Assembly: GCA_017623595.1 (NCBI GenBank)
Contig: JAGAOU010000039.1
Span: 6,538-70,537 of the forward strand
DNA length: 64,000 nt
Direction: 5' to 3'
DNA from: Clostridia bacterium
GTDB taxonomy: Bacteria; Bacillota; Clostridia; Oscillospirales; UBA644
Shown: positions 2,457-24,369 of the stretch, in pieces
Position numbering within the stretch: the stretch's first letter is position 1
Layout of the letters: every line of letters starts with the position of its first letter
The notes under the pieces: generated by a model
Databases searched by the model: none
Told to the model about the DNA's origin: nothing
Seen by the model: the letters and a program-made list of their open reading frames with translations, nothing else
Made by a program: the position numbers and the translations under genes

Positions 2457-2502
2457 AAGAATCCCCTCTTATGGCCTTATTATAGCATAAAAGGGGATTC
2501 TT
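2457..2502 (-). terminator. Terminator-like hairpin after the ATPase operon
   Basis: Arms 2457..2470 / 2489..2502 (core GAATCCCCT/AGGGGATTC, one mismatch), 18-nt loop, U-rich tail on the minus strand. The loop and arm carry the next promoter. Confidence 0.45.
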
Positions 2503-2511: not shown

Positions 2512-4446
2512 TTATTCTTTTGGTTCTTCGGGTTGATTTTCCTGATTAAGCTTGAGAATGCGGGAACTGTTCAGAATCACAACGAAGGCTCCGATGTTGT
2601 GGAGAATCGAACCTGCAAGGACGCTGATGACGCCGAAGGAGGAGAGGACGATCATCAAAAAGCTGATTCCGAGGGACAGCCCCAGGTTCTGATATATAAT
2701 CTTACGTGTGCGTTTTGCCAGGGTGATGGCAAAGGGGATGTTCATCAGATTGTCGCTCATCAGTGCGATATCTGCCGATTGAATGGCCAGATCCGACCCG
2801 ATGGCTCCCATGGCAATCCCCACGTGGGCTTCCTTCAGGGCAAGGGCATCGTTGATGCCGTCGCCGATGGCCAGAACACAGCGGTTTTTCTTGATTTCGC
2901 GGATAGAGTCCAGCTTGTCTTCGGGCAAAAGTTGGGCTTTCCATTCCTCGATCCCCGTTTCGCGACTGATTTTTTCAGCGACTTCGGGGCGGTCTCCCGT
3001 CAGCATAACGAACTGTTCGATGTCCAGTTTTTTCAGTGCATCAATGGCATCCTTTGCATCGGGGCGGGCGGTATCGTTAAAGCAAAGAGCGCCCAAAAGA
3101 TTGTTGTTTTCTGTGACATAGCTTACCGAGCCGAAGCAGCGGTTTTTGATTTCTTCGGGGATTTCAATGCCCAGCGTACTCAGCCAGCCCTCGTTTCCGA
3201 AGCGCAGGATTCTGCCGTCGGTATGCACCGCTTCCAGACCTTTCCCCGAAACTTCTCGTACTGTATATCCTTCCGCCGAGATTTCCCGTCCCTCCGCGGC
3301 GGCAACCACGGCTTGGGAGATGGGATGGGTGGAGTGATTTGCCGGCAGCAGGGCAGCGTCGAGCAGGGCTTCATCCGCCACCCCCTCTGCGCAGATGCGG
3401 TCTGTCAGGGACAGATTTCCCTTGGTGATGGTTCCCGTTTTGTCGAAGACTACCGCATCAATGGCGTTCGTTTCTTCCAGGAACTTGGAGTTTTTGATCA
3501 GAATCCCCCGTTTGGTCGCCACCGAAAGGGAAGCGATCATGGGTGCCGAGCTGACCAGCATTTGCCCGCAGGGGCAGGACACCACCAAAATGGCAATTGC
3601 TTTGGACAGATCGGAGGTGAAGAGGGCCACCGCCCCCGCAAGGGCAAGGACGAAGGGAATGTAATACATCATAAAGCGGTCGATCAGACGGGATTCGGGG
3701 ACAGCGATGCGCTCCGCTTTTTCCAGGAAGGTAAGAATATGGGAGAAGGATGTGTCCACGAATTCTTTCTGCACCTCGACGGTAATGGGCGAGTCCAGGT
3801 TGACCGTGCCCGCATAGACGGGGGATCCCACCGTCACATGCACCGATTCCGGTTCACCGGTAAGGGATTTTTGGTCGATATGGGATTCTCCCCCGATGAC
3901 AACTCCGTCAATGGGCACGCCTGCACCGGGTTTGACCAGGATCTTCTGCCCGATTTTCAAGGTCTTGCTGTCAACACGGGTTTCTTCTCCGTTTTCCAGC
4001 AGAATGGCGGAGCTTTGTTGCATTTGACGCAGACCGTCGATGATGTCCCGTCCCCCCACAATGCTTCGCTCTTCCAAAAAGTGGGCAATGTTCAGAATCA
4101 GGGGGATCATGGCGGAGAGAATCAGCTCGCCCGAAATGTAGCAGGCGAGAATGGCGATGGAAACCAGCATTTCCATGGCGTTTGTGAAATCGCGGGAGAA
4201 AATTCCCTTGATTGCCGCAATGAACACCGGAATTCCTTCCACCAAAAAGCCTATGGTATACAAAAGGGGCGCAACTATCGGCAGGCTTGGGATGAGAAAT
4301 TCATAGATCAGGCCGACGGCAATGCAGATCAGGGTGACGGCGGCAGAGATAATCTCTTTTTTCAGTTGTCTGCGTTTGGAACGGCTGAGATTGGTGCGGG
4401 AGAGCGCTTCCAAATTGTCCGCGCCTGCGTGACTGATATTTTTCAT
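2512..4446 (-). CDS. P1B-type (heavy-metal-type) cation-translocating P-type ATPase without an N-terminal HMA domain
   Basis: 644 aa. Motifs seen: TGEP (A domain), SCPC in TM4, FDKTGTIT phosphorylation site, STHPIS (HP motif), MLTGD, GDGINDALAL. Four TM segments precede the A domain. Confidence 0.9.
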   Translation of the reverse strand: MKNISHAGADNLEALSRTNLSRSKRRQLKKEIISAAVTLICIAVGLIYEFLIPSLPIVAPLLYTIGFLVEGIPVFIAAIKGIFSRDFTNAMEMLVSIAILACYISGELILSAMIPLILNIAHFLEERSIVGGRDIIDGLRQMQQSSAILLENGEETRVDSKTLKIGQKILVKPGAGVPIDGVVIGGESHIDQKSLTGEPESVHVTVGSPVYAGTVNLDSPITVEVQKEFVDTSFSHILTFLEKAERIAVPESRLIDRFMMYYIPFVLALAGAVALFTSDLSKAIAILVVSCPCGQMLVSSAPMIASLSVATKRGILIKNSKFLEETNAIDAVVFDKTGTITKGNLSLTDRICAEGVADEALLDAALLPANHSTHPISQAVVAAAEGREISAEGYTVREVSGKGLEAVHTDGRILRFGNEGWLSTLGIEIPEEIKNRCFGSVSYVTENNNLLGALCFNDTARPDAKDAIDALKKLDIEQFVMLTGDRPEVAEKISRETGIEEWKAQLLPEDKLDSIREIKKNRCVLAIGDGINDALALKEAHVGIAMGAIGSDLAIQSADIALMSDNLMNIPFAITLAKRTRKIIYQNLGLSLGISFLMIVLSSFGVISVLAGSILHNIGAFVVILNSSRILKLNQENQPEEPKE

Positions 4447-4455
4447 AGCGTTTTT

Positions 4456-5400
4456 TTATTCCCATTCAATAAAGATTTTTCCGTCACCGTCGTCTACCAG
4501 GCGTACCTGTCCGATGACCGCCAAGGCCTTTGCCATTTTCTCGTTGTAAATGCGGGCCTTGACGCTTGCGGGTGCGGCGTTGTATTCTTCCAGGATGCCC
4601 CAAAATTCCGAGAGATCGGATTTTGCACCGGAAACGGCGGTGGCATAACTGCTGTTTGCGGTGGAGATTACGGAGCTTGCCACCGATTCCGCATAGGGAA
4701 TAACCGTGTTGTAATATTGCTGTGCCCCTTCCAAAAGGGTGCTTGCTTCTACTGTGGCTGCGTTGACGTTTTCATATACGTCCCTCACCTCTTCGGGCAT
4801 GGATACGTTGGTTAATTCCAGCGCCTGCAGGGAAACACCCATGCCCGCTTCGTCCAGCTTGCGTTGCGATTCTCGGATAACATCTGCGGCGTAGGTCTCC
4901 TTGCCCGAGGTCAGAATATCGTCCACGGGGGTGATGGCGGCCTTCTCCAGCATGGCGTTGCTGACGCAGGCATCAATGACCGAAGAAACCTCGTTGACAT
5001 ACAGAGCATAGGCAACGGGATCGGAAATGATATATTTGACCGATGCGCTGATCAAAGCGATGTTTTGGTCTCCCGTGATTACGTAGCCGCTGTTGCTCCA
5101 TTTGTCGATGGTTCCGTCCGTGTAGTGGGTGGTTACGGTTTGTTGAATCACACTTCCCACGGGGACGGTTACCACCTCATCGATGAAATAGGGGAAGCAG
5201 AGCAGAAGTCCCGGGTTGTGGATCTGCTCCTCGGGGGTGTCACCCACAATCTTGCCGAAGCGCAGCACCATTGCAACCTCACCGCTTTTTACAATACGAA
5301 CCCCCGAAAAGGCGATGCAAAGAAGAACGATGATGATCAGTACCACAAAACAGCGGGAAACTGTGGTAAGAATATCTTCCAACAGGGTCTTTTTCTTCAT
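4456..5400 (-). CDS. SPFH/band-7 domain protein (HflK/HflC-like), single N-terminal TM
   Basis: 314 aa. One TM is followed by VRIVKSGEVAMVLRFGKIVG... (SPFH core) and an Ala/Glu-rich C-terminal helix. The start ATG overlaps the upstream stop (TAATG at 5398..5402). RBS GGGAGGA. Confidence 0.8.
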   Translation of the reverse strand: MKKKTLLEDILTTVSRCFVVLIIIVLLCIAFSGVRIVKSGEVAMVLRFGKIVGDTPEEQIHNPGLLLCFPYFIDEVVTVPVGSVIQQTVTTHYTDGTIDKWSNSGYVITGDQNIALISASVKYIISDPVAYALYVNEVSSVIDACVSNAMLEKAAITPVDDILTSGKETYAADVIRESQRKLDEAGMGVSLQALELTNVSMPEEVRDVYENVNAATVEASTLLEGAQQYYNTVIPYAESVASSVISTANSSYATAVSGAKSDLSEFWGILEEYNAAPASVKARIYNEKMAKALAVIGQVRLVDDGDGKIFIEWE

Positions 5401-6470
5401 TATCGGGTTCCTCCCTGTTCCCGAAGGAGTTCGTAGATGGCATCGATCAACGCCTTACGGTCGTTTTCGGGCAAACGGGTGAGAATGTATTCCAGATCGC
5501 TGACTACAGTTTGATTGTCCTCTCCGGAAAGAGAACTGCCGTATTCCAGAAGCACGTTGAAGGGATATGTGTCGGAGGTGACCACCAGAACGGTATTGTT
5601 GGATACGGAGGATACGATGGTGTCCAGCTCCTTGAGAAACTGGTAGAGCTCCAGATTTGCGGATTGGGCTTCCGCATAGATCTTGGCCACCTCCGCCTCG
5701 GTCCGGGCGTAGATTTCAGCGGCTTCGATTTCCGCTTTGGAGATGATTTCCGCATAATAAGCGTCGGTGTCGGAGGTTATGATGTCTGCATCTCTCTGCG
5801 CCTGGGCGATGATGCTGTCAATATCCTTCTGACGGTCGGCACGCATTTGTGCAAAGACGCTTTCCAGGTTGTTGTCGGGCAGGGAAATGCGCAGGATGCT
5901 GATGTTGTCTACGGTAATTCCGTAGCTCTTTTCGCAGTTATCCTTGACCATGGTGTAGATCTTATTCTGAATTTCATCGTAGCGGATCTCTTCCGATACC
6001 AGCGACACCAGCGCCGACAGATTGTAAGAGCCGAGAACGCTGTTTGTGGCGTTGAAGATCTGATCGTTGATGTAGGATTCCACCTTTTCCCTGGATCCGA
6101 TGCTGTTGTGGAACAGAAGGGGATCCTTTACCGACCACAGAGCATAGGATTGGAGGATGATGTTGCGGTTGTCCTTGGTGGTGGTTTCCAAGGAATTGGA
6201 TTCCAGATATTGCAGACGGCTGTCATAGGTGGTTACCGTCTCGAAGGGCCAGGGCAGTTTGAAATAGAGCCCTGCCTCCGTGATTTCCGCACGGGGCGCA
6301 CCAAAGCGCAGAATGACGGCGCTGGTTCCTTCCCGTACTTCGCAGGTGAATCCGAAGTATCCCACGACCAGCAGCAGAACAAGTGCGATAATTCCCTTCA
6401 GCCAGGTATAAGAGGGCTTCTTTTCGGGGGCCTGAGGTTCGTTTGTGATTTGATTGGGTTCTTTATTCAT
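5400..6470 (-). CDS. SPFH/band-7 domain protein, HflC-like, single N-terminal TM
   Basis: The ORF track starts at TTG 6479, but ATG 6470 sits 9 nt after RBS AAGAGGA. Seen: VREGTSAVILRFGAPRAEITEAGLYFKLPWPFETV (SPFH core) and an AEIEAAEIYARTEAEVAKIYAEAQ coiled-coil region typical of HflC. Confidence 0.85.
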   Translation of the reverse strand: MNKEPNQITNEPQAPEKKPSYTWLKGIIALVLLLVVGYFGFTCEVREGTSAVILRFGAPRAEITEAGLYFKLPWPFETVTTYDSRLQYLESNSLETTTKDNRNIILQSYALWSVKDPLLFHNSIGSREKVESYINDQIFNATNSVLGSYNLSALVSLVSEEIRYDEIQNKIYTMVKDNCEKSYGITVDNISILRISLPDNNLESVFAQMRADRQKDIDSIIAQAQRDADIITSDTDAYYAEIISKAEIEAAEIYARTEAEVAKIYAEAQSANLELYQFLKELDTIVSSVSNNTVLVVTSDTYPFNVLLEYGSSLSGEDNQTVVSDLEYILTRLPENDRKALIDAIYELLREQGGTR

Positions 6471-6500
6471 AATCGGCAATCCTCTTTGTTTTTCTCTCGT

Positions 6501-8315
6501 TTATTCCGTGATGAAGTTTCCGTAATACAGGCGGGATCCGTCCACGCCGTCCCCGAGAATGATCAGTTTCGAGTTCTGATATGCGGAACCGATGGCTTTC
6601 AAATAGCGATAGTAGGCATATTCCGAGGGGTAGGTTTCGGAGGCTTCCACGGCGGCGATGAATTCGGAGATTTCTTTCTTGGCCAAAGCAATGCGGGCAC
6701 AGTAGTCGATGTTCGCCTCGTTGATGGTTTCGTAGTAGGTGGTTTCGCCTTCGGCAATCTTAACTGCGGCGGCGGCTTCTGCCACAAGGATCATTTCCTC
6801 TGCGTTGATCTCTGCACCGATAAAGGCTTGATATACCTCCGCTACGTCCACGGGGGGATGGATGCTTTCCAAAATGACATTGATGACTTCCAGTCCCGAA
6901 TCGAAGGAATCCATGGATGTGACCAGCTCTTCCTTCAGGGAGACTGCGAAGGTTTCCCGATTGGTTGCAAGGATGGTTTCCAGGTCGGCGCTTATGGTGC
7001 GGTCGGTGACCAACTCATAGGCCTTCGCCTGCAGCAGCTGTTCGGGGGATGCGGTGCTCTTTAAATATTTGTAGAGATCCTTGATGCGATATTCCACCCG
7101 CAGGTTGATGGAGACAAGCTCATTACCGCTTCCTAGCAGCAGCTTATACTCACTGTCGCCGTGGGCCTCGGTCCAGACGTTGTCGCTGTTTTCTGTGGCC
7201 TTGTATCCGATGGTCACCTTGTTGATGGTTTCGGTGTCGTAGATTTCGGTTTTGTCAAAGGGGTAGGGAAGGGTTAGGTGCAATCCGGGAGCGAGGGGCT
7301 CTTCCTGCAGTGTTCCCAAACGGTATACCGCACCCTGCTGGTGGGATTGGACGTAGATCAGACCCGTGGCCATCCAGAACAGTACCACGCCGCCCAGCAC
7401 GGCATAGGGTAGGATTTTTCGGATGTACTTCATGCTCCAGAGACTGCGCAGGGTGATCCCCGTGTTTTTCTCCAAAAAGGACAGCACCGAAAGCTCTTTG
7501 ATGTCGGCCTGCAGGAAGGGGAGAAGAATCACAATGCCGGGGGCAGTGCCCAACTCCTTGCGGATCATGCGTATGGTCAGGGAGAAGATCACCATGGCTC
7601 CCACATAATAGAAGAGGATGGCGAGTCCGTATCTCAGGTAGATCTGAATGTTGCCCAGGTTCAGAAGCTCCAGGGTCAGGGAAAGGGCAAGGAAGACCAG
7701 AATCAGCTTGGTCAGCGCAAAGAAGGAGCTTGCGTTGCGCAGAAGCATGGCGCTGAAGGTGTCCTCGGTTTCGGCGTGGTTGCACATTTTCCCCAACACA
7801 ATCGCGCCCACAAACATGGCGGCGATCAGGGCGAGATGCCAATATGCCACCGTCTCAAGGATCGGGGGACTGGCCAGAAAATATCCGAACAGAACCAGAC
7901 AGATCAGCAACACATCCGCCAACAAAAACATCTGAACGGGACGGTAAATGCGGCAGAGGGTATTGTACATGTCGTCAGGATTCTTGGCCGATTTCTTTTT
8001 CTTTGCTTTTTTGCGCAACAGAGATTTTTTCGTTTTCTCGGAGGGCTGCGTTTCGACTTCTTCCGGTGAAGGCATTTCCTCCGGGGGAGGCGGTGTTTCT
8101 GTGGTCTCTGCTGCGGGCACGATCCTTTTCGGCTCAAAGCAGAAGAGCAGCAGGATGAGATTCACCGTGGCAAGCATCAGCAGGAAAATTCCGCTTAATT
8201 GGTACAGGCGGCATTGGCTCAACCAGTACATCAAAAACAGAATTCCTGCGTACAGGAACAGGCTTCCCGTTGACCATGCACAGGCGGTGAGGGAATTGCG
8301 TCGGTTTTGTTTCAT
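6501..8315 (-). CDS. polytopic membrane protein with a C-terminal SPFH/band-7 (HflK-like) domain
   Basis: 604 aa, RBS GGAGG. The N-terminal ~330 aa has at least 7 hydrophobic segments plus a Pro/Glu- then Lys-rich linker (aa 67-115). The C-terminal half has AVYRLGTLQEEPLAPGLHLTLPYPFDK... (SPFH core). Confidence 0.8.
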   Translation of the reverse strand: MKQNRRNSLTACAWSTGSLFLYAGILFLMYWLSQCRLYQLSGIFLLMLATVNLILLLFCFEPKRIVPAAETTETPPPPEEMPSPEEVETQPSEKTKKSLLRKKAKKKKSAKNPDDMYNTLCRIYRPVQMFLLADVLLICLVLFGYFLASPPILETVAYWHLALIAAMFVGAIVLGKMCNHAETEDTFSAMLLRNASSFFALTKLILVFLALSLTLELLNLGNIQIYLRYGLAILFYYVGAMVIFSLTIRMIRKELGTAPGIVILLPFLQADIKELSVLSFLEKNTGITLRSLWSMKYIRKILPYAVLGGVVLFWMATGLIYVQSHQQGAVYRLGTLQEEPLAPGLHLTLPYPFDKTEIYDTETINKVTIGYKATENSDNVWTEAHGDSEYKLLLGSGNELVSINLRVEYRIKDLYKYLKSTASPEQLLQAKAYELVTDRTISADLETILATNRETFAVSLKEELVTSMDSFDSGLEVINVILESIHPPVDVAEVYQAFIGAEINAEEMILVAEAAAAVKIAEGETTYYETINEANIDYCARIALAKKEISEFIAAVEASETYPSEYAYYRYLKAIGSAYQNSKLIILGDGVDGSRLYYGNFITE

Positions 8316-8371
8316 GTAAAGCCTCCGAACATCAGGTTTAACATATGCAGAGAAGTTATATATACAGAATC

Positions 8372-8400
8372 AGTATAGCATCCCCAAAGAAAAAAGTCAA
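8372..8400 (-). promoter_or_regulatory. SigA-type promoter of the SPFH-ATPase operon
   Basis: -35 TTGACT (8400..8395), 17-bp spacer, extended -10 TGcTATACT (-10 at 8377..8372). Confidence 0.6.
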
Positions 8401-8456
8401 GAATCATAGAAAAAGTTTGCGAAAGTTTTTACAGAGCTGACGATTTTTTTAGGAAT

Positions 8457-8494
8457 GGAAAAAAGTACCGCGATGAAGTACGTTCATCGCGGTA
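8457..8494 (-). terminator. Intrinsic terminator of pepF
   Basis: 12-bp perfect stem TACCGCGATGAA (8466..8477) / TTCATCGCGGTA (8483..8494), followed on the minus strand by a T-run (plus-strand A-run 8459..8464). Confidence 0.8.
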
Positions 8495-8503
8495 GGTGAT
8501 TTC

Positions 8504-10282
8504 TTATTTCAGAAGCAGGGCTTCCAGATCGGTGAGGGCCTTGTCCATTTCCTTCATGGCGTTGTTGACCACAGAAGGATCAGTCATGTCGATGCCTGCG
8601 ATCTTCAGCTCGTTGATGGGATAGTCGCTACCGCCGGTGGAGAGGAATTCCAGATAAGCGGAGGCGTCTCCCGTCTCCAGAATGTTGCGGACAATGGAGA
8701 CCGATGCACAGAAGGCGGTGGCATACTGATAGACGTAGAAGGCACGGTAGAAGTGGGGAATACGGGACCATTCGATATCCTGCAGCTCGTCTACCACTGC
8801 GCCGTTGTAGTACAGCTCATTGAGCTCGCGGTAGATCTTGTTCAGGGTGTCGGCCGTGAGGGGAACGCCCTGCTGGTTCAGATCGTGGGCCTTGCGCTCG
8901 AATTCCGCAAAGAGGGTCTGACGGAAGACGGTGGTGCGGAATCCTTCCAGGAAGTGGTTGAGGATATAGGCCTTCTTCGTGGGATCGGTTTCGGTTGCAA
9001 GGAAGTAGCGGGTCATCAGAACTTCGTTGACTGTGGATGCAACCTCTGCCACAAAAATTCTGTAGTCGTGGTTTGCGTAGTCCTGCTTTTCGGAGGAGAA
9101 GTAGGAGTGCATTGCATGTCCCAATTCATGGGCAAGGGTAAAGGCATCGTCAAAGGTGTCGGTGAAGTTCAGCAACACATAGGGGTGAACGCCGTAAACA
9201 CCGCTGGAATATGCACCTGTGGTTTTGCCCTTGGTTTCGTAGACGTCAATCCAACGCTCGTTGTAGGCGCGATCCAGAAGATCCAGATATTTCTGTCCCA
9301 GAGGTGCGCAGGCCTTCTTGACCATCTCCTTGGCTTCCTCGTAGGTTACCTCCGCATTGCATTCGGGAACGATGGGGCAATACAGATCATACATATGAAG
9401 CTCGTCCAGCTTCAGCACCTTTTTGCGCAGTTCCAGATACCGTTTCATGACAGGAAGTGCGTTGTGGAGAGAATTGACCAGATTATCGTACACAGAAACG
9501 GGTACATTAGAGGAGAAGAGGGCGCGGTGGCATGCGCTTTCGTGATTGCGGACCTTCGTGTAATAGTTGTCAAACTTCACGGAGTTGCCGTAAATGGCAG
9601 CAATGGTGTTGTTGTATTTCTTGAATTCTCCGAAGTATTTCTCAAAGGCTTCCTTGCGAACTCTGCGATCGTTGCTTTCACGGAAGGCACCGAAGGAGCC
9701 GTGGGAAAGCTGAACCTCTTCGCCCTTTTCGTTTTGAATGGTGGGGAAGGACATGTCTACGCTTTCAAACATGTCAAAGGGCTCGTCGGCGGAAGAGGAG
9801 ACCTCGCCCAACAGAGCCAGCATCTTTTCCTTTTCCTCGTCCAGTGTGTGGGGACGGGCGCGGGCAATGTCTTCCACAATATGCTTATAGCCTGCCAGAA
9901 TGGGGTCCTGCAGGTATCCCGCAAGCAGTTCTCCGTCCATGGCAAGAATTTCGGGCTCCAGGAAGGAAGCGGCGGCCGACATCTGGGTGTACAGAATCAT
10001 GGCTTTTCCGCTCATTTGCTGGGAGGTGGCGTCTCCGTTGTCCAGGCTCTTGCGCAGGAAGGTGTAGGAATAAACCCGTTCCAGCTTCTGCATGGCACCG
10101 TACAGGGTGTCCAGCCCCTGCTTCAGGGCGGCGGCGGATTGGCTCAGCGTCCCCTTGATGGCAGGAATGGTCTGCACGGCGGCAACGGCGTCGTTGTAGG
10201 CTTCTTCCCATGCGGCGTCGCTTTCGAAGATCTGGGTCAGGTCCCAGGTAAGCTCTTTTGCGATTTCTTTTCTTTCTTTCAT
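8504..10282 (-). CDS. pepF: oligoendopeptidase F (M3B metallopeptidase)
   Basis: HELGHAMH zinc motif and an overall PepF-like sequence. The start is trimmed to ATG 10282 (MKERKEIAKELTWDL...), preceded by RBS AAGGAGGA. The ORF-track start 10342 lies upstream of the -10 element. Confidence 0.92.
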   Translation of the reverse strand: MKERKEIAKELTWDLTQIFESDAAWEEAYNDAVAAVQTIPAIKGTLSQSAAALKQGLDTLYGAMQKLERVYSYTFLRKSLDNGDATSQQMSGKAMILYTQMSAAASFLEPEILAMDGELLAGYLQDPILAGYKHIVEDIARARPHTLDEEKEKMLALLGEVSSSADEPFDMFESVDMSFPTIQNEKGEEVQLSHGSFGAFRESNDRRVRKEAFEKYFGEFKKYNNTIAAIYGNSVKFDNYYTKVRNHESACHRALFSSNVPVSVYDNLVNSLHNALPVMKRYLELRKKVLKLDELHMYDLYCPIVPECNAEVTYEEAKEMVKKACAPLGQKYLDLLDRAYNERWIDVYETKGKTTGAYSSGVYGVHPYVLLNFTDTFDDAFTLAHELGHAMHSYFSSEKQDYANHDYRIFVAEVASTVNEVLMTRYFLATETDPTKKAYILNHFLEGFRTTVFRQTLFAEFERKAHDLNQQGVPLTADTLNKIYRELNELYYNGAVVDELQDIEWSRIPHFYRAFYVYQYATAFCASVSIVRNILETGDASAYLEFLSTGGSDYPINELKIAGIDMTDPSVVNNAMKEMDKALTDLEALLLK

Positions 10283-10332
10283 ATTATATATCCTCCTTGG
10301 GTGAGTTTCCCCTTCGGTTTTACTGTGACTAT

Positions 10333-10361
10333 ATCTTACCACACCCGAAGGGATTTGTCAA
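10333..10361 (-). promoter_or_regulatory. SigA-type promoter of pepF
   Basis: -35 TTGACA (10361..10356), 17-bp spacer, extended -10 TGgTAAGAT (-10 at 10338..10333). Confidence 0.55.
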
Positions 10362-10578: not shown

Positions 10579-10607
10579 TTGACATCCGAAGCGAAATGTG
10601 CTATACT
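10579..10607 (+). promoter_or_regulatory. SigA-type promoter of nrdG-nrdD-trxB
   Basis: -35 TTGACA (10579..10584), 17-bp spacer, extended -10 TGcTATACT (-10 at 10602..10607). It sits 9 bp downstream of NrdR box 2. Confidence 0.7.
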
Positions 10608-10640
10608 GTATGCGTACCGCCGAAAGAGAGGAGTGAGCCT

Positions 10641-11327
10641 GTGGACTTTTGCGGATTTCAAAAACTGACCCTGTTGGACTATCCGGGCCGTATGGCCGCA
10701 ACCCTGTTTACCGGTGGGTGCAATCTGCGCTGTCCCTTCTGCCATAACGGCGGGCTGGTCCTTTCCCCCGAGAGCCTTTATTCCGAGGATGAGGTGTTGA
10801 CCTTCCTTGCCTCCCGCAAAGGCCTTTTGGACGGCGTCTGTGTTACGGGTGGGGAGCCCCTGCTTCAGCCTGAGTTGGGAGAATTCCTTTCCAAGGTGAA
10901 GGATTTGGGGATGTCGGTCAAGCTTGACACCAACGGCACGCTCCCGAACCGTCTGAAGGAATTGGTTTCCCGCGGACTTGTGGACTACATCGCCATGGAT
11001 GTGAAAAACTGCCCCGAAAAATATGCCGAAACCACCGGCCTTCCCTCCGTCGATCTTTCCCGTATCAATGAAAGTATTTCCTTTACAATGGAAGGGAAGA
11101 CCGAATACGAGTTCCGTACCACCGTCGTGCGTGAGCTTCACACCGAGGATGATATTGCCAAGTTGGCCCAATGGATCGCAGGAGCGCAAAAGTACGCATT
11201 GCAGTCCTTCGTCGATTCCGGATCTCTTCTGTCCGACGGGCTGACGGCATGGGACAAAGAGACTATGTACCGCATGGCGGACATTGCCCGCAAATCTGTC
11301 CCCAATACCGAGGTGCGGGGCATCTGA
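10641..11327 (+). CDS. nrdG: anaerobic ribonucleoside-triphosphate reductase activating protein (radical SAM)
   Basis: CNLRCPFCHN radical-SAM cluster motif. The start is moved to GTG 10641 (RBS AGAGGAG 7 nt upstream), because the ORF-track ATG 10596 lies inside the promoter spacer. Confidence 0.9.
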   Translation: MDFCGFQKLTLLDYPGRMAATLFTGGCNLRCPFCHNGGLVLSPESLYSEDEVLTFLASRKGLLDGVCVTGGEPLLQPELGEFLSKVKDLGMSVKLDTNGTLPNRLKELVSRGLVDYIAMDVKNCPEKYAETTGLPSVDLSRINESISFTMEGKTEYEFRTTVVRELHTEDDIAKLAQWIAGAQKYALQSFVDSGSLLSDGLTAWDKETMYRMADIARKSVPNTEVRGI

Positions 11328-11371: not shown

Positions 11372-13744
11372 ATGTACCATGTAGTAAAAAGAGGCGGCTC
11401 TGTTGTCAGCTTTGACGTTCGCAAGATCTGTGATGCGATCCAGAAGGCCTTTGACGCCACCGGCAAAAACTATCATCCTTCCACCATCGACTTTTTGGGT
11501 CTGAAGGTTACGGCCGATTTCGAGCCGAAGATCAAAGACGATGTGATCGCCGTAGAAGATATTCAGGACAGCGTGGAATCGGTTCTGATTCAGGCGGGCT
11601 ATTCCGATGTCGCCAAGGCCTACATTCTCTATCGCCGTCAGCGGGAAAAGCTCCGCGCTATCGGCGCTACCGCTCTGGACTATAAAGAAACGGTCAACGG
11701 CTATCTGGGCGGCTCCGACTGGCGCGTGAAGGAGAACTCCACCGTTACCTACTCTGTCGGTGGTCTGATCCTCAGCAACTCCGGTGCCATCACCGCGAAC
11801 TATTGGCTTTCCGAGATCTATGATGACGAGATCTCCAATGCACACCGTAACGGCGATATTCATCTTCATGACCTTTCCATGCTCACCGGTTACTGTGCCG
11901 GTTGGTCCCTCAAGCAGCTGATTCAGGAAGGTCTCGGCGGTGTTCCCGGTAAGATCACCTCTGCTCCCGCAAGCCACCTTTCCACCCTCTGCAATCAGAT
12001 GGTAAACTTCCTGGGTATCATGCAGAACGAATGGGCCGGCGCTCAGGCTTTCTCTTCTTTTGACACCTATCTTGCTCCCTTTGTCAAGATCGATAATCTG
12101 TCTCAGCGTGAAGTCAAGCAGTGCATCCAGTCCTTCATTTACGGTGTGAACACCCCCAGCCGCTGGGGTACTCAGGCACCCTTCTCCAACATTACTTTGG
12201 ACTGGGTCTGCCCCCCCGACCTGAAGGATCAGCCTGCCATCGTCGGCGGTAAGGAAATGGACTTCACCTACGGCGACTGCAAGAAGGAGATGGATATGGT
12301 CAACAAGGCCTTCATCGAAATCATGATCGAAGGCGATGCCAACGGCCGCGGATTCCAGTATCCCATCCCCACCTATTCCATCACCCGCGACTTCGACTGG
12401 AGCGAAACCGAAAACAACAAACTCCTCTTCGAAATGACCGCAAAATACGGGACTCCCTATTTCTCCAACTATATCAACTCCGACATGGAACCCAGCGACG
12501 TTCGCTCCATGTGTTGCCGTCTCCGTCTTGACCTGCGTGAACTGCGCAAGAAGTCCGGCGGCTTCTTCGGCAGCGGTGAATCCACCGGCTCCATCGGCGT
12601 TGTTACCATCAATCTGCCCCGCATTGCTTACCTTGCGGACAACGAAGCAGACTTCTACGCTCGTCTCGATCGGTTGATGGATGTTGCCGCCCGCAGTCTG
12701 AAGACCAAGCGTGAGGTTATCACCAAGCTGATGGAGAACGGACTGTATCCCTATACCAAGCGTTATCTGGGAACCTTCGCCAACCACTTCTCCACCATCG
12801 GTCTGATCGGTATGAACGAAGTCGGTTTGAACGCAAACTGGCTCCGTGCAGACCTCACCCATGACATTACCCAGCAGTTTGCTAAGGACGTGCTGAATCA
12901 TATGCGGGAACGTCTGTCCGACTATCAGGAAAAGTACGGCGACCTGTACAACCTGGAAGCTACTCCCGCCGAATCCACTACCTATCGCTTTGCCAAGCAC
13001 GATAAGAAGCACTATCCCAACATCATCACCGCCAATGAAAACGGTACTCCTTATTACACCAACTCTTCCCACCTGCCTGTGGGCTACACCGCAGACGTGT
13101 TCACCGCTTTGAGCATGCAGGATGAGCTTCACACCCTCTACACCTCCGGTACCGTGTTCCACGCTTATCTGGGTGAAAAGCTGCCCGACTGGAAGGCTGC
13201 CGCTTCTCTCGTTCGCAAGATCGCCGAGAACTTCAAGCTGCCCTACTATTCCATCAGCCCCACCTATTCCGTATGCCCCACCCACGGTTATATCACCGGC
13301 GAGCACTTCTCCTGCCCCGAATGCGGACATGAGACCGAGGTTTACAGCCGTATCACCGGTTACTACCGTCCCGTCAAGCACTGGAATGACGGTAAGAGCC
13401 AGGAATACAAGGACCGTAAGGTATACGATGTGGCAACCTCCGTGCTGAAAACCTCTGTGAAAGAGACTCCCTGCAGCTGTGAAGATGCTTGTCAGGTCGC
13501 TCCTCAGACCGCAGAAGCAAAGGTTCTGCTCTTCAGCCGTGTGACCTGCCCCAATTGCCGTGTGGCTGAAACCATGCTGGCAAAAGCAGGTGTGGCTTAT
13601 GAGAAACTGATTGCAGACGAACATCTGGATCTTTGCCAGAAGTATGGAATCAAGGGCGCTCCCACCCTGGTTGTGGATGACGGCACCCACTTTGCCACCT
13701 ATTACTCCGTGCAGGAAATCAAGAAGTTTATCGCTTCTCTGTAA
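11372..13744 (+). CDS. nrdD: anaerobic (class III) ribonucleoside-triphosphate reductase with an N-terminal ATP-cone and a C-terminal fused thioredoxin-fold domain
   Basis: RBS AAGGAGA. ATP-cone (MYHVVKRGGSVVSFDVRKICDAIQKAF...), Zn-ribbon CPTH...CPECG, glycyl-radical motif SRITGYYRPV, then a linker and a CPNC redoxin module. Confidence 0.95.
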   Translation: MYHVVKRGGSVVSFDVRKICDAIQKAFDATGKNYHPSTIDFLGLKVTADFEPKIKDDVIAVEDIQDSVESVLIQAGYSDVAKAYILYRRQREKLRAIGATALDYKETVNGYLGGSDWRVKENSTVTYSVGGLILSNSGAITANYWLSEIYDDEISNAHRNGDIHLHDLSMLTGYCAGWSLKQLIQEGLGGVPGKITSAPASHLSTLCNQMVNFLGIMQNEWAGAQAFSSFDTYLAPFVKIDNLSQREVKQCIQSFIYGVNTPSRWGTQAPFSNITLDWVCPPDLKDQPAIVGGKEMDFTYGDCKKEMDMVNKAFIEIMIEGDANGRGFQYPIPTYSITRDFDWSETENNKLLFEMTAKYGTPYFSNYINSDMEPSDVRSMCCRLRLDLRELRKKSGGFFGSGESTGSIGVVTINLPRIAYLADNEADFYARLDRLMDVAARSLKTKREVITKLMENGLYPYTKRYLGTFANHFSTIGLIGMNEVGLNANWLRADLTHDITQQFAKDVLNHMRERLSDYQEKYGDLYNLEATPAESTTYRFAKHDKKHYPNIITANENGTPYYTNSSHLPVGYTADVFTALSMQDELHTLYTSGTVFHAYLGEKLPDWKAAASLVRKIAENFKLPYYSISPTYSVCPTHGYITGEHFSCPECGHETEVYSRITGYYRPVKHWNDGKSQEYKDRKVYDVATSVLKTSVKETPCSCEDACQVAPQTAEAKVLLFSRVTCPNCRVAETMLAKAGVAYEKLIADEHLDLCQKYGIKGAPTLVVDDGTHFATYYSVQEIKKFIASL
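13523..13741 (+). other. C-terminal glutaredoxin/NrdH/thioredoxin-like domain of NrdD (73 aa)
   Basis: VLLFSRVTCPNCRVAETMLAKAGVAYEKLIADEHLDLCQKYGIKGAPTLVVDDG...: a beta-strand leads into a CPxC dithiol, and a GAPT cis-Pro loop precedes a beta-strand, which is the thioredoxin-fold pattern. Confidence 0.75.
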
Positions 13745-22381: not shown

Positions 22382-22403
22382 GTAAAAAACGGAACATGCC
22401 GAA

Positions 22404-22610
22404 GATAGAGGTGCGGTCGCCACCGATTCCGGAATATGCCTGAGGCGGGTGCGGAATTGAGGACGGTCGCCGAGGTTGCGGTGAGGGCCTTTCAGCCGCA
22501 ATCGGGACGGCGCAGAAGATGCGTCGTACTGTCACAGAACCCTGTGGAGCGCTATCATGATTTGCAATTCCCCGTGTCATGAAGCATCTTCATGGCACGT
22601 TTTGTTTTTT
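22404..22610 (+). promoter_or_regulatory. Lysine riboswitch (L-box) with intrinsic terminator
   Basis: GAAGATAGAGGTGCG..., ...AATATGCCTGAGG..., ...GAGGACGGTCGCCGAGG... and ...CTGTCACAGAA... match conserved L-box blocks of B. subtilis lysC as I recall them. P1 is closed by GATAG (22404..) / CTATC (..22556). The terminator has a 12-bp stem (22573..22584 / 22588..22599) plus TTTTGTTTTTT. Confidence 0.88.
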
Positions 22611-22635
22611 CAGATTATTTTTCGGAGGGAAAACA

Positions 22636-24369
22636 ATGAAAAAGATGACCCGAATTTTCGGTATTCTGCTGCTTTGTCTTGCCTTGGTGGGAGCCATGTC
22701 CATGGTCTTCTCCGCCGAAGAGGCAACCGACGTTGCGGCGGCGTCCGAAGAGGCTGCGGAATACGCCAGCAGCTTTTACAACACCTTTCTCGCGCTCCTG
22801 CCCCCCATTATCGCCATCGGCCTTGCCCTGATCACCAAGGAAGTGTATTCTTCCTTGTTCATCGGTATTTTGTCGGGCGGTATTCTTTATGCCATCTCTG
22901 CCGACGGTTTCAGCTTTGAGACCATGTTCAACGCCGTTCTGAAGGACGGTCTTTTGAACAATCTGGCGGATGATTATAATATGGGCATTTTGATCTTCCT
23001 TGTGGTTCTCGGTATCATCGTTGTGATGATGAACCGTGCGGGCGGCTCCCGTTCCTACGGTGAGTGGGCATCCAAGCGGATTAAGTCCAACAAGGGGGCT
23101 CAGGCTTCCACCTTCGGGCTGGGTGTTCTGATCTTTGTGGATGACTATTTTAACTGCCTGACCGTGGGTAGCGTTATGCGTCCCTTGACCGACAAACAGC
23201 GGATCTCCCGTGCCAAGCTGGCCTATCTGATCGACGCCACCGCCGCTCCTGTCTGCATTATCGCTCCCATCTCTTCCTGGGCCGCCGCCGTCAGCGGTAC
23301 GGTCACGGGCTCCAGCGGTGTGGAGGTCAACGGTCTGGAACTGTTTATCCGCACCATTCCTTACAATCTCTACGCACTTCTGACTCTCGCCATGGTTCTT
23401 TTTGTGGCCTTCTCCGGCAAGGATTTCGGCCCCATGCGCAAGCATGAGCTTCGTGCACGGATCAATGGTGATCTGACCTCCGGTATTGATTCCGGCGAAA
23501 GCGAAGAGGAAGAAAAGTCCAACGCCAAGGGCAAGGTGATTGACCTTGTGCTTCCCGTTGTGATTCTGATCGTCTTCTGCGTTGTCGGTATGCTTTACAC
23601 CGGCGGGTTCTTCAGCGGAACGGGAATTATCGACGCCTTTGCAGGCTGCGATGCTTCTTACGGTTTGGCCCTCGGTTCACTCGGTGCGCTTCTGATCAAT
23701 GTGGTTTATTTCCTCTGCCGCCGTGTTCTTTCCTTTAAGGAAAGCATGGCCGCCATCCCCGAAGGCTTCAAGCAGATGGTTCCCGCCATTCTGATCCTTA
23801 CCTTCGCTTGGGGGCTGAAGGGAATGACCGGTCTTCTCGGTGCAGATGTTTACGTTGCAGAGCTGGTGAAGAGCGCCACCGCCCTCCAGATCCTCCTGCC
23901 CGCAATCCTCTTCATCGTTGCCGTATTCCTTGCCTTTGCCACCGGCACTTCCTGGGGTACCTTCGGTATCTTGATTCCCATCGTCACCGGTGTCTTCGAA
24001 GCGGATCTTGCCAACATCACCGAATCTGCCGGATCGCTGCCCACCTTGATGGTGATCTGCATTTCCGCCTGCCTTGCCGGTGCGGTCTGCGGTGACCACT
24101 GCTCGCCCATTTCCGACACCACCATTATGTCCTCCACGGGCGCCAAGTGTGATCACGTGACCCACGTTTCCACTCAGTTGCCCTATGCTATGACCGTGGC
24201 CTCCGTTTGCTTAGTCGGTTATCTGATTTCCGGATTCATTCAGAATGTCTGGGTTGTTCTCGGTGTCAGCATGGTACTGCTGTTTGCAATCCTCTTTGTT
24301 GTGACAAAAATCGCAAATCGCAACAATGCCGCAGAAGAAGCTGCTCTGCGGAAGGAACTCCAAGAATAA
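22636..24369 (+). CDS. NhaC-family (Na+/H+ antiporter superfamily) transporter, predicted lysine transporter of the LysW type
   Basis: 577 aa and polytopic. Start ATG 22636 follows RBS GGAGGG. The ORF-track start 22579 lies inside the riboswitch terminator. Control by an L-box implies a lysine-related substrate. Confidence 0.85.
   Translation: MKKMTRIFGILLLCLALVGAMSMVFSAEEATDVAAASEEAAEYASSFYNTFLALLPPIIAIGLALITKEVYSSLFIGILSGGILYAISADGFSFETMFNAVLKDGLLNNLADDYNMGILIFLVVLGIIVVMMNRAGGSRSYGEWASKRIKSNKGAQASTFGLGVLIFVDDYFNCLTVGSVMRPLTDKQRISRAKLAYLIDATAAPVCIIAPISSWAAAVSGTVTGSSGVEVNGLELFIRTIPYNLYALLTLAMVLFVAFSGKDFGPMRKHELRARINGDLTSGIDSGESEEEEKSNAKGKVIDLVLPVVILIVFCVVGMLYTGGFFSGTGIIDAFAGCDASYGLALGSLGALLINVVYFLCRRVLSFKESMAAIPEGFKQMVPAILILTFAWGLKGMTGLLGADVYVAELVKSATALQILLPAILFIVAVFLAFATGTSWGTFGILIPIVTGVFEADLANITESAGSLPTLMVICISACLAGAVCGDHCSPISDTTIMSSTGAKCDHVTHVSTQLPYAMTVASVCLVGYLISGFIQNVWVVLGVSMVLLFAILFVVTKIANRNNAAEEAALRKELQE

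Follow-up and report, generated by a model that had tools for sequence, protein, structure and literature searches.

Why should three genes for SPFH proteins share an operon with the gene for an ion pump? The question is raised by a locus on contig JAGAOU010000039.1 of a Clostridia bacterium (GenBank assembly GCA_017623595.1), of which positions 6,538 to 70,537 were analyzed; this stretch of 64,000 nucleotides (nt) is hereafter called the window, and positions are counted from its first letter. Open reading frame (ORF) calling placed four genes, here named A, B, C and D, on the minus strand between 8315 and 2512. An earlier reading of the letters and their ORFs (hereafter the sequence-only reading) had proposed that three SPFH proteins encoded there might scaffold or gate a P1B-type ATPase encoded beside them. 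We find that the operon is kept in well over a hundred uncultured relatives, and the best explanation is a self-contained, vertically inherited four-gene operon in which an SPFH trio is dedicated to a single clade of P1B ATPases. The four genes, with the lengths of their products in amino acids (aa), are as follows.

6501..8315, minus strand: gene A, 604 aa from an ATG start; polytopic N-terminal half followed by an HflK-like SPFH domain
5400..6470, minus strand: gene B, 356 aa from ATG; HflC-like SPFH protein
4456..5400, minus strand: gene C, 314 aa; HflK-like SPFH protein
2512..4446, minus strand: gene D, 644 aa; P1B-type ATPase

This order of products, a polytopic SPFH protein, an HflC-like protein, an HflK/C-like protein and a P1B ATPase, had been given by the sequence-only reading and was borne out by matches to Pfam and NCBIfam families.

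To determine how firmly the four genes are held together, relatives were sampled from both ends of the operon. On the A side, GTDB species representatives were scanned with an alignment of A, which yielded 132 relatives, 80 of which were kept; all 80 loci are metagenome-assembled genomes (MAGs) or uncultured-isolate assemblies, mostly labelled Clostridia. On the D side, metagenome contigs were searched with two motifs specific to the pump clade, DQKSLTGE and VSCPCGQM, giving 80 loci at 45-80% ATPase identity. The retrieved family members, all of them from metagenomes or MAGs, were mostly of gut origin, with ruminants and humans among the named sources. The order A-B-C-D and the common strand were kept in every A-side locus whose contig was long enough, and ORF extraction from the 80 loci recovered 69 with four complete genes. 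Seen from the D side, 64 loci offered 1 kb or more of sequence ahead of the ATPase gene, and in 62 of these C lay directly upstream. Where 3.9 kb or more was available (35 loci), C, B and A were present without exception, even at an ATPase identity of only 45-48%. Inspection of the seven most distant loci showed an A-type protein that still measures 600-646 aa and has a hydrophobic N-terminus. The synteny of SPFH genes and ATPase in related genomes, on which the sequence-only reading had staked its proposal, thus proved essentially invariant in both sampling directions.

The spacing of the genes is similarly constrained. Over the 160 loci, median gaps were 15 nt between A and B, 1 nt between B and C and 12 nt between C and D, with B and C overlapping in 63 of 131 loci. 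In the window, the junctions read from the sequence are exactly those that had been reported, namely a 30-nt gap between A and B, which holds a ribosome-binding site, a 1-nt overlap between B and C within TAATG, where the last A of the TAA stop is common to the ATG start and a GGAGG box lies 9 nt upstream, and a 9-nt gap between C and D. The longest ORF of gene B opens at a TTG at 6479; the 356-aa reading from the ATG at 6470 is preferred because an AGAGGA box lies 9 nt 5′ of that ATG. Pairwise distances of the four proteins correlated with one another (r = 0.84-0.93), which we take as evidence of co-inheritance only, and the module is inherited as a unit. A diverges to 22% pairwise identity while linkage, order and gaps of at most 20 nt hold and the flanks change. 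A fusion of an SPFH protein with the ATPase was considered for one locus (L052) and rejected, as its apparent 945-aa ATPase was an ORF extended past a stop codon.

All three upstream products are SPFH proteins. Their matches to the SPFH domain PF01145 exceeded the gathering score of 23.6 (47.1 bits for A, where the Band_7 domain occupies aa 322-515, 93.9 for B and 61.5 for C). The best family for B was HflC (TIGR01932, 122 bits, cutoff 134) and that for C was HflK (TIGR01933, 142 bits, cutoff 159), the family against which A reached 86 bits under the same cutoff. Because B and C fall under these NCBIfam equivalog cutoffs, they are termed HflC-like and HflK-like here rather than HflC and HflK. 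Their best sequence matches in the PDB were E. coli HflC (E = 1e-22) and E. coli HflK (E = 7.5e-22), respectively, and each has a single N-terminal transmembrane (TM) helix. The C-terminal half of A is 23% identical to C over 296 residues and hardly aligns with B, which marks the SPFH half of A, at the level of sequence, as a paralogue of C. The three SPFH paralogues of the sequence-only reading therefore remain three SPFH proteins, now refined to one HflC-like (B) and two HflK-like (A and C) members. An AlphaFold2 model of A built with 79 homologues (mean predicted local distance difference test score, pLDDT, of 79) consists of seven long TM helices, the SPFH domain, a 70-residue coiled-coil helix and a C-terminal tail; its top Foldseek matches were HflK chains in FtsH-HflKC cages, followed by stomatin, prohibitin, erlin, QmcA and flotillin.

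What sets A apart is its N-terminal half.

7356..8315, minus strand: N-terminal polytopic domain of A, aa 1-320, seven helices

No Pfam family matched aa 1-320. Modelled alone, the domain gave a pLDDT of 84 and a predicted TM-score (pTM) of 0.76, and a Foldseek search of this model against the PDB returned no significant fold match (best E-value 1.5). YiiP and ZnT3 recurred in that search with TM-scores of only 0.38-0.43, and a relationship to the cation diffusion facilitators is not claimed. The domain was found in just 66 clusters among 1.84 billion representatives, and 43 of the 66 are of A-like length (~550-680 aa). Across 105 homologues its TM helices vary freely, and the most conserved element of the N-terminal half is the nearly invariant motif FLE(E/K)NTGITLRSLWS, at aa 280-294 between helices 6 and 7. 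The loops at aa 61-128 and 244-300 are long and rich in Lys and Arg and are predicted from hydropathy and charge to be cytoplasmic. By charge distribution (the positive-inside rule) and by homology to HflK/C, the acidic SPFH domains of A, B and C are predicted to lie outside the membrane, opposite the ATPase head of the pump.

An insert in the SPFH domain of A (aa ~370-398, in 6501-7415), to which a region of C is equivalent, was modelled with a pLDDT below 50, yet carries the near-invariant pattern GY...DN.WT..H...E..LLLG, and an invariant ESIHPP motif stands further on. The conserved residues of the insert and of ESIHPP would lie on the outer face and may contact a ligand or a metal.

The pump itself belongs to a distinctive clade. 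D scored 493 bits against TIGR01525 (heavy-metal P-type ATPases; cutoff 346) and 436 bits against TIGR01512 (cutoff 313.5). It carries the E1-E2 ATPase and HAD domains, TGEP, DKTGT (D335), the HP dipeptide (H374-P375) and GDGINDA, together with eight predicted TM helices, of which TM4 holds SCPCGQ (C291, C293), TM5 holds YQN with S595 and TM6 holds H616-N617. Judged by these features D is a complete P1B ATPase; a domain scan found no N-terminal HMA domain, and the N-terminal tail is only 31 residues long. Sequence matches placed D at roughly equal distance from ZntA (4umv), sCoaT (7qbz) and CopA (3rfu, 7r0g), with E-values of 1e-76 to 1e-58, and it has in common with these pumps the 8-TM core, DKTGT, HP, GDGINDA and CPx in TM4. 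It departs from classical P1B pumps in the missing N-terminal HMA domain, in a Ser where ZntA has Lys693 and in a His-Asn pair where sCoaT has His-Glu and ZntA has Asp714.

The signatures of the known P1B types make the point clearer. P1B-2 pumps (ZntA and CadA, for Zn, Cd or Pb) combine CPC in TM4 with a Lys in TM5 and an Asp in TM6 (K693 and D714 in ZntA), P1B-4 pumps (CoaT, CzcP and PfeT, for Co, Fe or Zn) combine SPC in TM4 with HEGxT in TM6, and P1B-1 pumps (CopA, Cu(I)) have CPC, YN in TM5, MxxSS in TM6 and one or more N-terminal HMA domains. Compared to ZntA, D keeps CPC but has S595 at the position of K693 and N617 at that of D714; S595 and N617 are near-invariant across its clade. Compared to sCoaT, TM4 reads CPC and not SPC, and TM6 reads H616-N617-x-G-A against H-E-G-S-T, with only the His in common. 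As for the CopA type, inspection of the aligned TM5 and TM6 segments showed neither YN nor MxxSS, and the TIGR01511 score of 349 lies under the cutoff of 397. By these signatures D would fit none of the types 1B-1 to 1B-4, and its substrate is not readable from sequence. Over 123 clade sequences, 153 positions of D were at least 97% invariant, S595, H616 and N617 among them; the unusual CPC/His-Asn ion site is specific to this clade. Because the linkage is invariant in both directions, the genes are coupled start to stop, the A-type protein is found in no other context and the pump clade is this constrained, a dedicated functional partnership between A/B/C and D is very probable.

The signals that flank the four genes in the window are consistent with a transcription unit of their own.

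8372..8400, minus strand: sigma-70-type promoter-like site; -35 box TTGACT (8400-8395), 17-nt spacer, TG-extended -10 box TATACT (8377-8372); 10/12 matches
8466..8494, minus strand: intrinsic terminator of pepF; 12-bp stem with 6 GC pairs, then a T-run
2457..2502, minus strand: hairpin 3′ of the operon; 17 predicted pairs, -25.4 kcal/mol, then the U-rich tail TTTATAT

ORF, motif and folding checks confirmed every position that the sequence-only reading had given for the four minus-strand genes, the promoter and the hairpin. The promoter-like site, which would leave the operon a 5′ untranslated region of ~50 nt, lies just downstream of the terminator of the upstream neighbour pepF (8504-10342; TIGR00181 at 634 bits), and this terminator insulates the operon from upstream transcription. 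None of 200 shuffled sequences was as stable as the 3′ hairpin (z = -5.65), which is probably the operon terminator; a simple terminator scan gave no call at 2457-2502 because the loop is long. RNA evidence came from one gut metatranscriptome (X4), which contains 41% of the k-mers of the region. Its contigs cover parts of A, B, C and D and bridge two junctions, C/D at 4270-4600 and A/B at 6432-6719. One contig ends at 8367, 5 nt 3′ of the -10 box, and no RNA contig of X4 was found over 8368-8700 or 2300-2727. These data are compatible with one transcript running from ~8367 to the hairpin.

A perfect TTGACA-17-TATAAT promoter (2507-2479, minus strand) overlaps the 3′ hairpin of the operon, its TTGACA standing just ahead of the left arm of the hairpin and its TG-TATAAT covering the end of that arm and the loop. 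Transcription from it would enter the next gene (1967-2431), a multi-TM ORF of 154 aa that had no Pfam or NCBIfam match.

How, then, might the trio serve the pump? The arrangement that we hold to be somewhat more probable than its absence is a hetero-oligomeric SPFH ring or dome on the outer face of the membrane that corrals the pump through a palisade of TM helices, with A as the adaptor. By homology to HflK/C, A, B and C would assemble into a ring or dome of that type on the outer face of the cytoplasmic membrane, and the TM helices of the assembly would fence off a patch of membrane. D would be held within this patch, probably through the polytopic domain of A and its invariant cytoplasmic juxtamembrane motif, and the assembly would stabilize, concentrate or regulate D, whose metal would be released beneath the dome. 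The contact of A, B and C with D is something we infer, as are the direction of transport and the identity of the metal. A bolder version, which strikes us as distinctly unlikely, is an FtsH-independent, outward-facing dome with the P1B pump as its sole client, enclosing an extracytoplasmic chamber that receives the metal, a 'pseudo-periplasm' for buffering, hand-off or metallation in single-membrane bacteria; in about one third of species the chamber may involve BspA-type leucine-rich-repeat lipoproteins encoded upstream of A (see below). If true, it would be the first bacterial SPFH microdomain to form a compartment and to have a transporter genetically dedicated to it as client.

The partnership has to be weighed against other explanations of the same operon. 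A, B and C could simply be the HflK/C complex of this lineage, holding an FtsH encoded elsewhere, with the pump as a proteolytically controlled co-client or substrate. The likeness of B and C to HflC and HflK extends over their full length, and HflK of the FtsH-HflKC complex is the closest structural match to the model of A; moreover, FtsH is nearly universal, is not known to be linked to hflKC in E. coli and degrades some P-type ATPases, MgtA being an example. We nevertheless regard this explanation as unlikely, given that B and C score under the HflC and HflK equivalog cutoffs and that the trio is strictly tied to one ATPase clade and includes a 7-TM domain in A that is foreign to canonical hflKC. 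It would, in any case, still imply a physical neighbourhood of SPFH proteins and pump. That neither ftsH nor nfeD lies nearby, as the sequence-only reading had remarked, holds for what was searched: no ftsH was found among the ORFs of at least 560 aa in the 64-kb window, and no NfeD domain was matched in A, B, C, D or the 154-aa ORF. Neither absence says much; the missing ftsH is weak evidence against FtsH as a partner, as hflKC and ftsH are not known to be linked in E. coli either.

The four genes might also be co-expressed without their products ever touching, the SPFH complex attending to membrane or envelope upkeep and the pump to metal efflux, with the operon serving their joint regulation. 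Operons do at times pair proteins that act in parallel and are physically separate. Here, however, the gene order and the gaps of at most 20 nt persist although A has diverged to 22% identity and all flanks have changed, and the A-type protein occurs in no other context, an exclusivity typical of the subunits of one machine; joint regulation without contact is thus very unlikely. As to chance adjacency or an annotation artefact in a single genome, the recurrence of the arrangement in 160 independent loci, from genomes and metagenomes alike, refutes it and leaves it virtually no probability.

Several observations weigh against the dedicated partnership or the way in which we picture it. Two D-side loci depart from the rule: L134 (ATPase at 3359-5254) lacks SPFH genes throughout its contig, which includes 3.4 kb upstream of the ATPase gene, and L128, with 1.2 kb of upstream DNA free of SPFH genes, is perhaps a second decoupled case. 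Their ATPases belong to the clade at 49-53% identity, and the two loci could represent decoupling, SPFH genes that moved elsewhere in the genome or assembly chimeras. The D-side motifs being specific to the clade, that sample shows the clade to be SPFH-linked and does not locate the clade's boundary. Shared phylogeny could by itself yield the correlation of protein distances, which was obtained with no unlinked control gene. The RNA data are assembled contigs from a single metatranscriptome in which DNA carry-over is possible, and the B/C junction was matched solely by a contig of a related variant; the single transcript of the sequence-only reading is therefore bridged by RNA contigs at A/B and C/D, and at B/C only through that variant. 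Finally, P1B pumps are almost devoid of extracytoplasmic mass and offer no handle of the FtsH kind, so that any contact with the SPFH proteins would have to be made in the membrane or on the cytoplasmic face.

How does the module compare to known systems? The closest is HflK/HflC-FtsH of E. coli (7vhp, 7wi3, 9cz2). HflC and HflK are the nearest sequence relatives of B and C, which similarly consist of one TM helix at the N-terminus followed by SPFH domain and coiled coil and are encoded by adjacent, translationally coupled genes; the predicted structure of the C-terminal half of A is closest to HflK; and the module, too, probably forms a hetero-oligomeric dome that fences a membrane patch with a polytopic, ATP-driven client. 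In contrast to HflK/HflC, there are three paralogues here instead of two, one of them with a 7-TM N-terminal domain; the C-like gene precedes the K-like gene; the linked neighbour is a P1B ion pump and not the FtsH protease; and B and C stay below the equivalog cutoffs of the two families.

In function, a nearer parallel is PacL1-CtpC of Mycobacterium tuberculosis, where the gene of a P1B ATPase shares its transcript with that of a small membrane protein acting as scaffold or chaperone (PMC9374683; PMC13043812). PacL1 is needed for the abundance of CtpC and clusters the pump into membrane platforms, for which it has been termed 'flotillin-like' in function; it lies outside the SPFH family, being a DUF1490 protein that has Glu/Ala repeats and a tail that binds metal, and Rv1488, the flotillin of mycobacteria, is not required (PMC9374683). 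The partners in the present module are, in contrast, true SPFH proteins, none of which has an obvious metal-binding tail, and no DUF1490 match was obtained for A, B or C; the resemblance to PacL is one of function only. Operon linkage of a prokaryotic SPFH gene to a membrane partner is also seen in SPFH-NfeD pairs (stomatin/PH1511-PH1510; QmcA-YbbJ, 8z5g; FloT-YuaF), as described in a 2009 survey of prokaryotic SPFH operons that is without any mention of ATPases (PMC2636767); here neither the operon proteins nor the 154-aa neighbour has an NfeD domain, and the partner is a transporter. Direct engagement of a transport protein by an SPFH oligomer is known from human stomatin-aquaporin-1 (PDB 9zd2) and other stomatin-channel pairs, which differ in being eukaryotic, homo-oligomeric, cytoplasm-facing and genetically unlinked and in having a channel, not a P-type pump, as the client.

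SPFH cages with membrane clients are thus already established (FtsH-HflKC, QmcA-YbbJ, stomatin-aquaporin-1). The novelty lies in a three-paralogue system of the HflK/C type with a fixed genetic link to an ion pump, which does not amount to a new category of machine. The literature searched contained no paper joining SPFH, HflK, HflC or stomatin proteins with P-type or P1B ATPases in one linkage, in line with the sequence-only reading, which was not aware of any description of such a client relationship, and neither half of the module appears to have been studied before. Except for FtsH with HflK/C and the partners in NfeD pairs, the clients of bacterial SPFH microdomains have largely been deduced from co-localization. 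With its fixed pairing of one HflK/C-type assembly and one transporter, the module makes the question of the client directly testable. It also extends to true SPFH proteins the 'effluxosome' idea drawn from PacL/CtpC, by which P1B pumps work in organized membrane platforms, and it draws attention to an uncharacterized P1B clade whose pumps have a CPC/His-Asn site and lack both a metal-binding domain and an attached regulator.

The surroundings of the operon are those of a housekeeping region. Large ORFs in the window include a class I tRNA synthetase (possibly IleRS), PNPase, an Hsp90-family protein and a glycoside hydrolase family 2 (GH2) enzyme, and the GC content of the operon (0.515-0.528) equals the window average; on native GC and housekeeping neighbours, a horizontal-transfer island was rejected. 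A role in anti-phage defence was likewise set aside, there being no meaningful PADLOC hits. When the flanking ORFs of the 80 A-side loci were clustered, no metalloregulator, no NfeD and no conserved small partner gene emerged, and neither pepF nor the 154-aa ORF was conserved beside the module. With no metal sensor attached and housekeeping genes all around, the module may serve normal physiology more than resistance.

The sole recurrent neighbours of the module, seen in about one third of loci, are LRR_5 (BspA-type leucine-rich-repeat) lipoproteins. Of 104 related loci, 36 have an LRR_5 gene in the same orientation directly upstream of A (L009-L011, L013-L016, L020, L022-L024, L027-L029, L031, L032, L034-L039, L042, L048, L053, L060, L068, L077, L079, L085, L088, L091, L095, L096, L108, L138). 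Mostly there are two such genes (~340 and 430 aa), the nearer of which ends -16 to +30 nt from the start of A, and the N-termini of the proteins resemble lipoprotein signal peptides, which points to a six-gene form of the module that includes extracytoplasmic partners. No LRR_5 gene of this kind occurs anywhere in the 64-kb window.

Two further observations concern more distant parts of the window. An Rfam scan returned nothing near the operon and only a lysine riboswitch 14 kb off (RF00168, 74 bits; 22398-22562, plus strand), which lies immediately 5′ of the gene for a 596-aa protein of the PF03553 Na+/H+ antiporter family (22579-24369, plus strand), an arrangement that has been predicted elsewhere to represent a lysine transporter. 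Closer to the operon, a 243-aa ORF (10596-11327, plus strand) with the CxxxCxxC motif CNLRCPFCHN is followed by a 790-aa ORF (11372-13744, plus strand); from their sequences the two look like the activase and the reductase of an anaerobic ribonucleotide reductase, which would fit a strict anaerobe.

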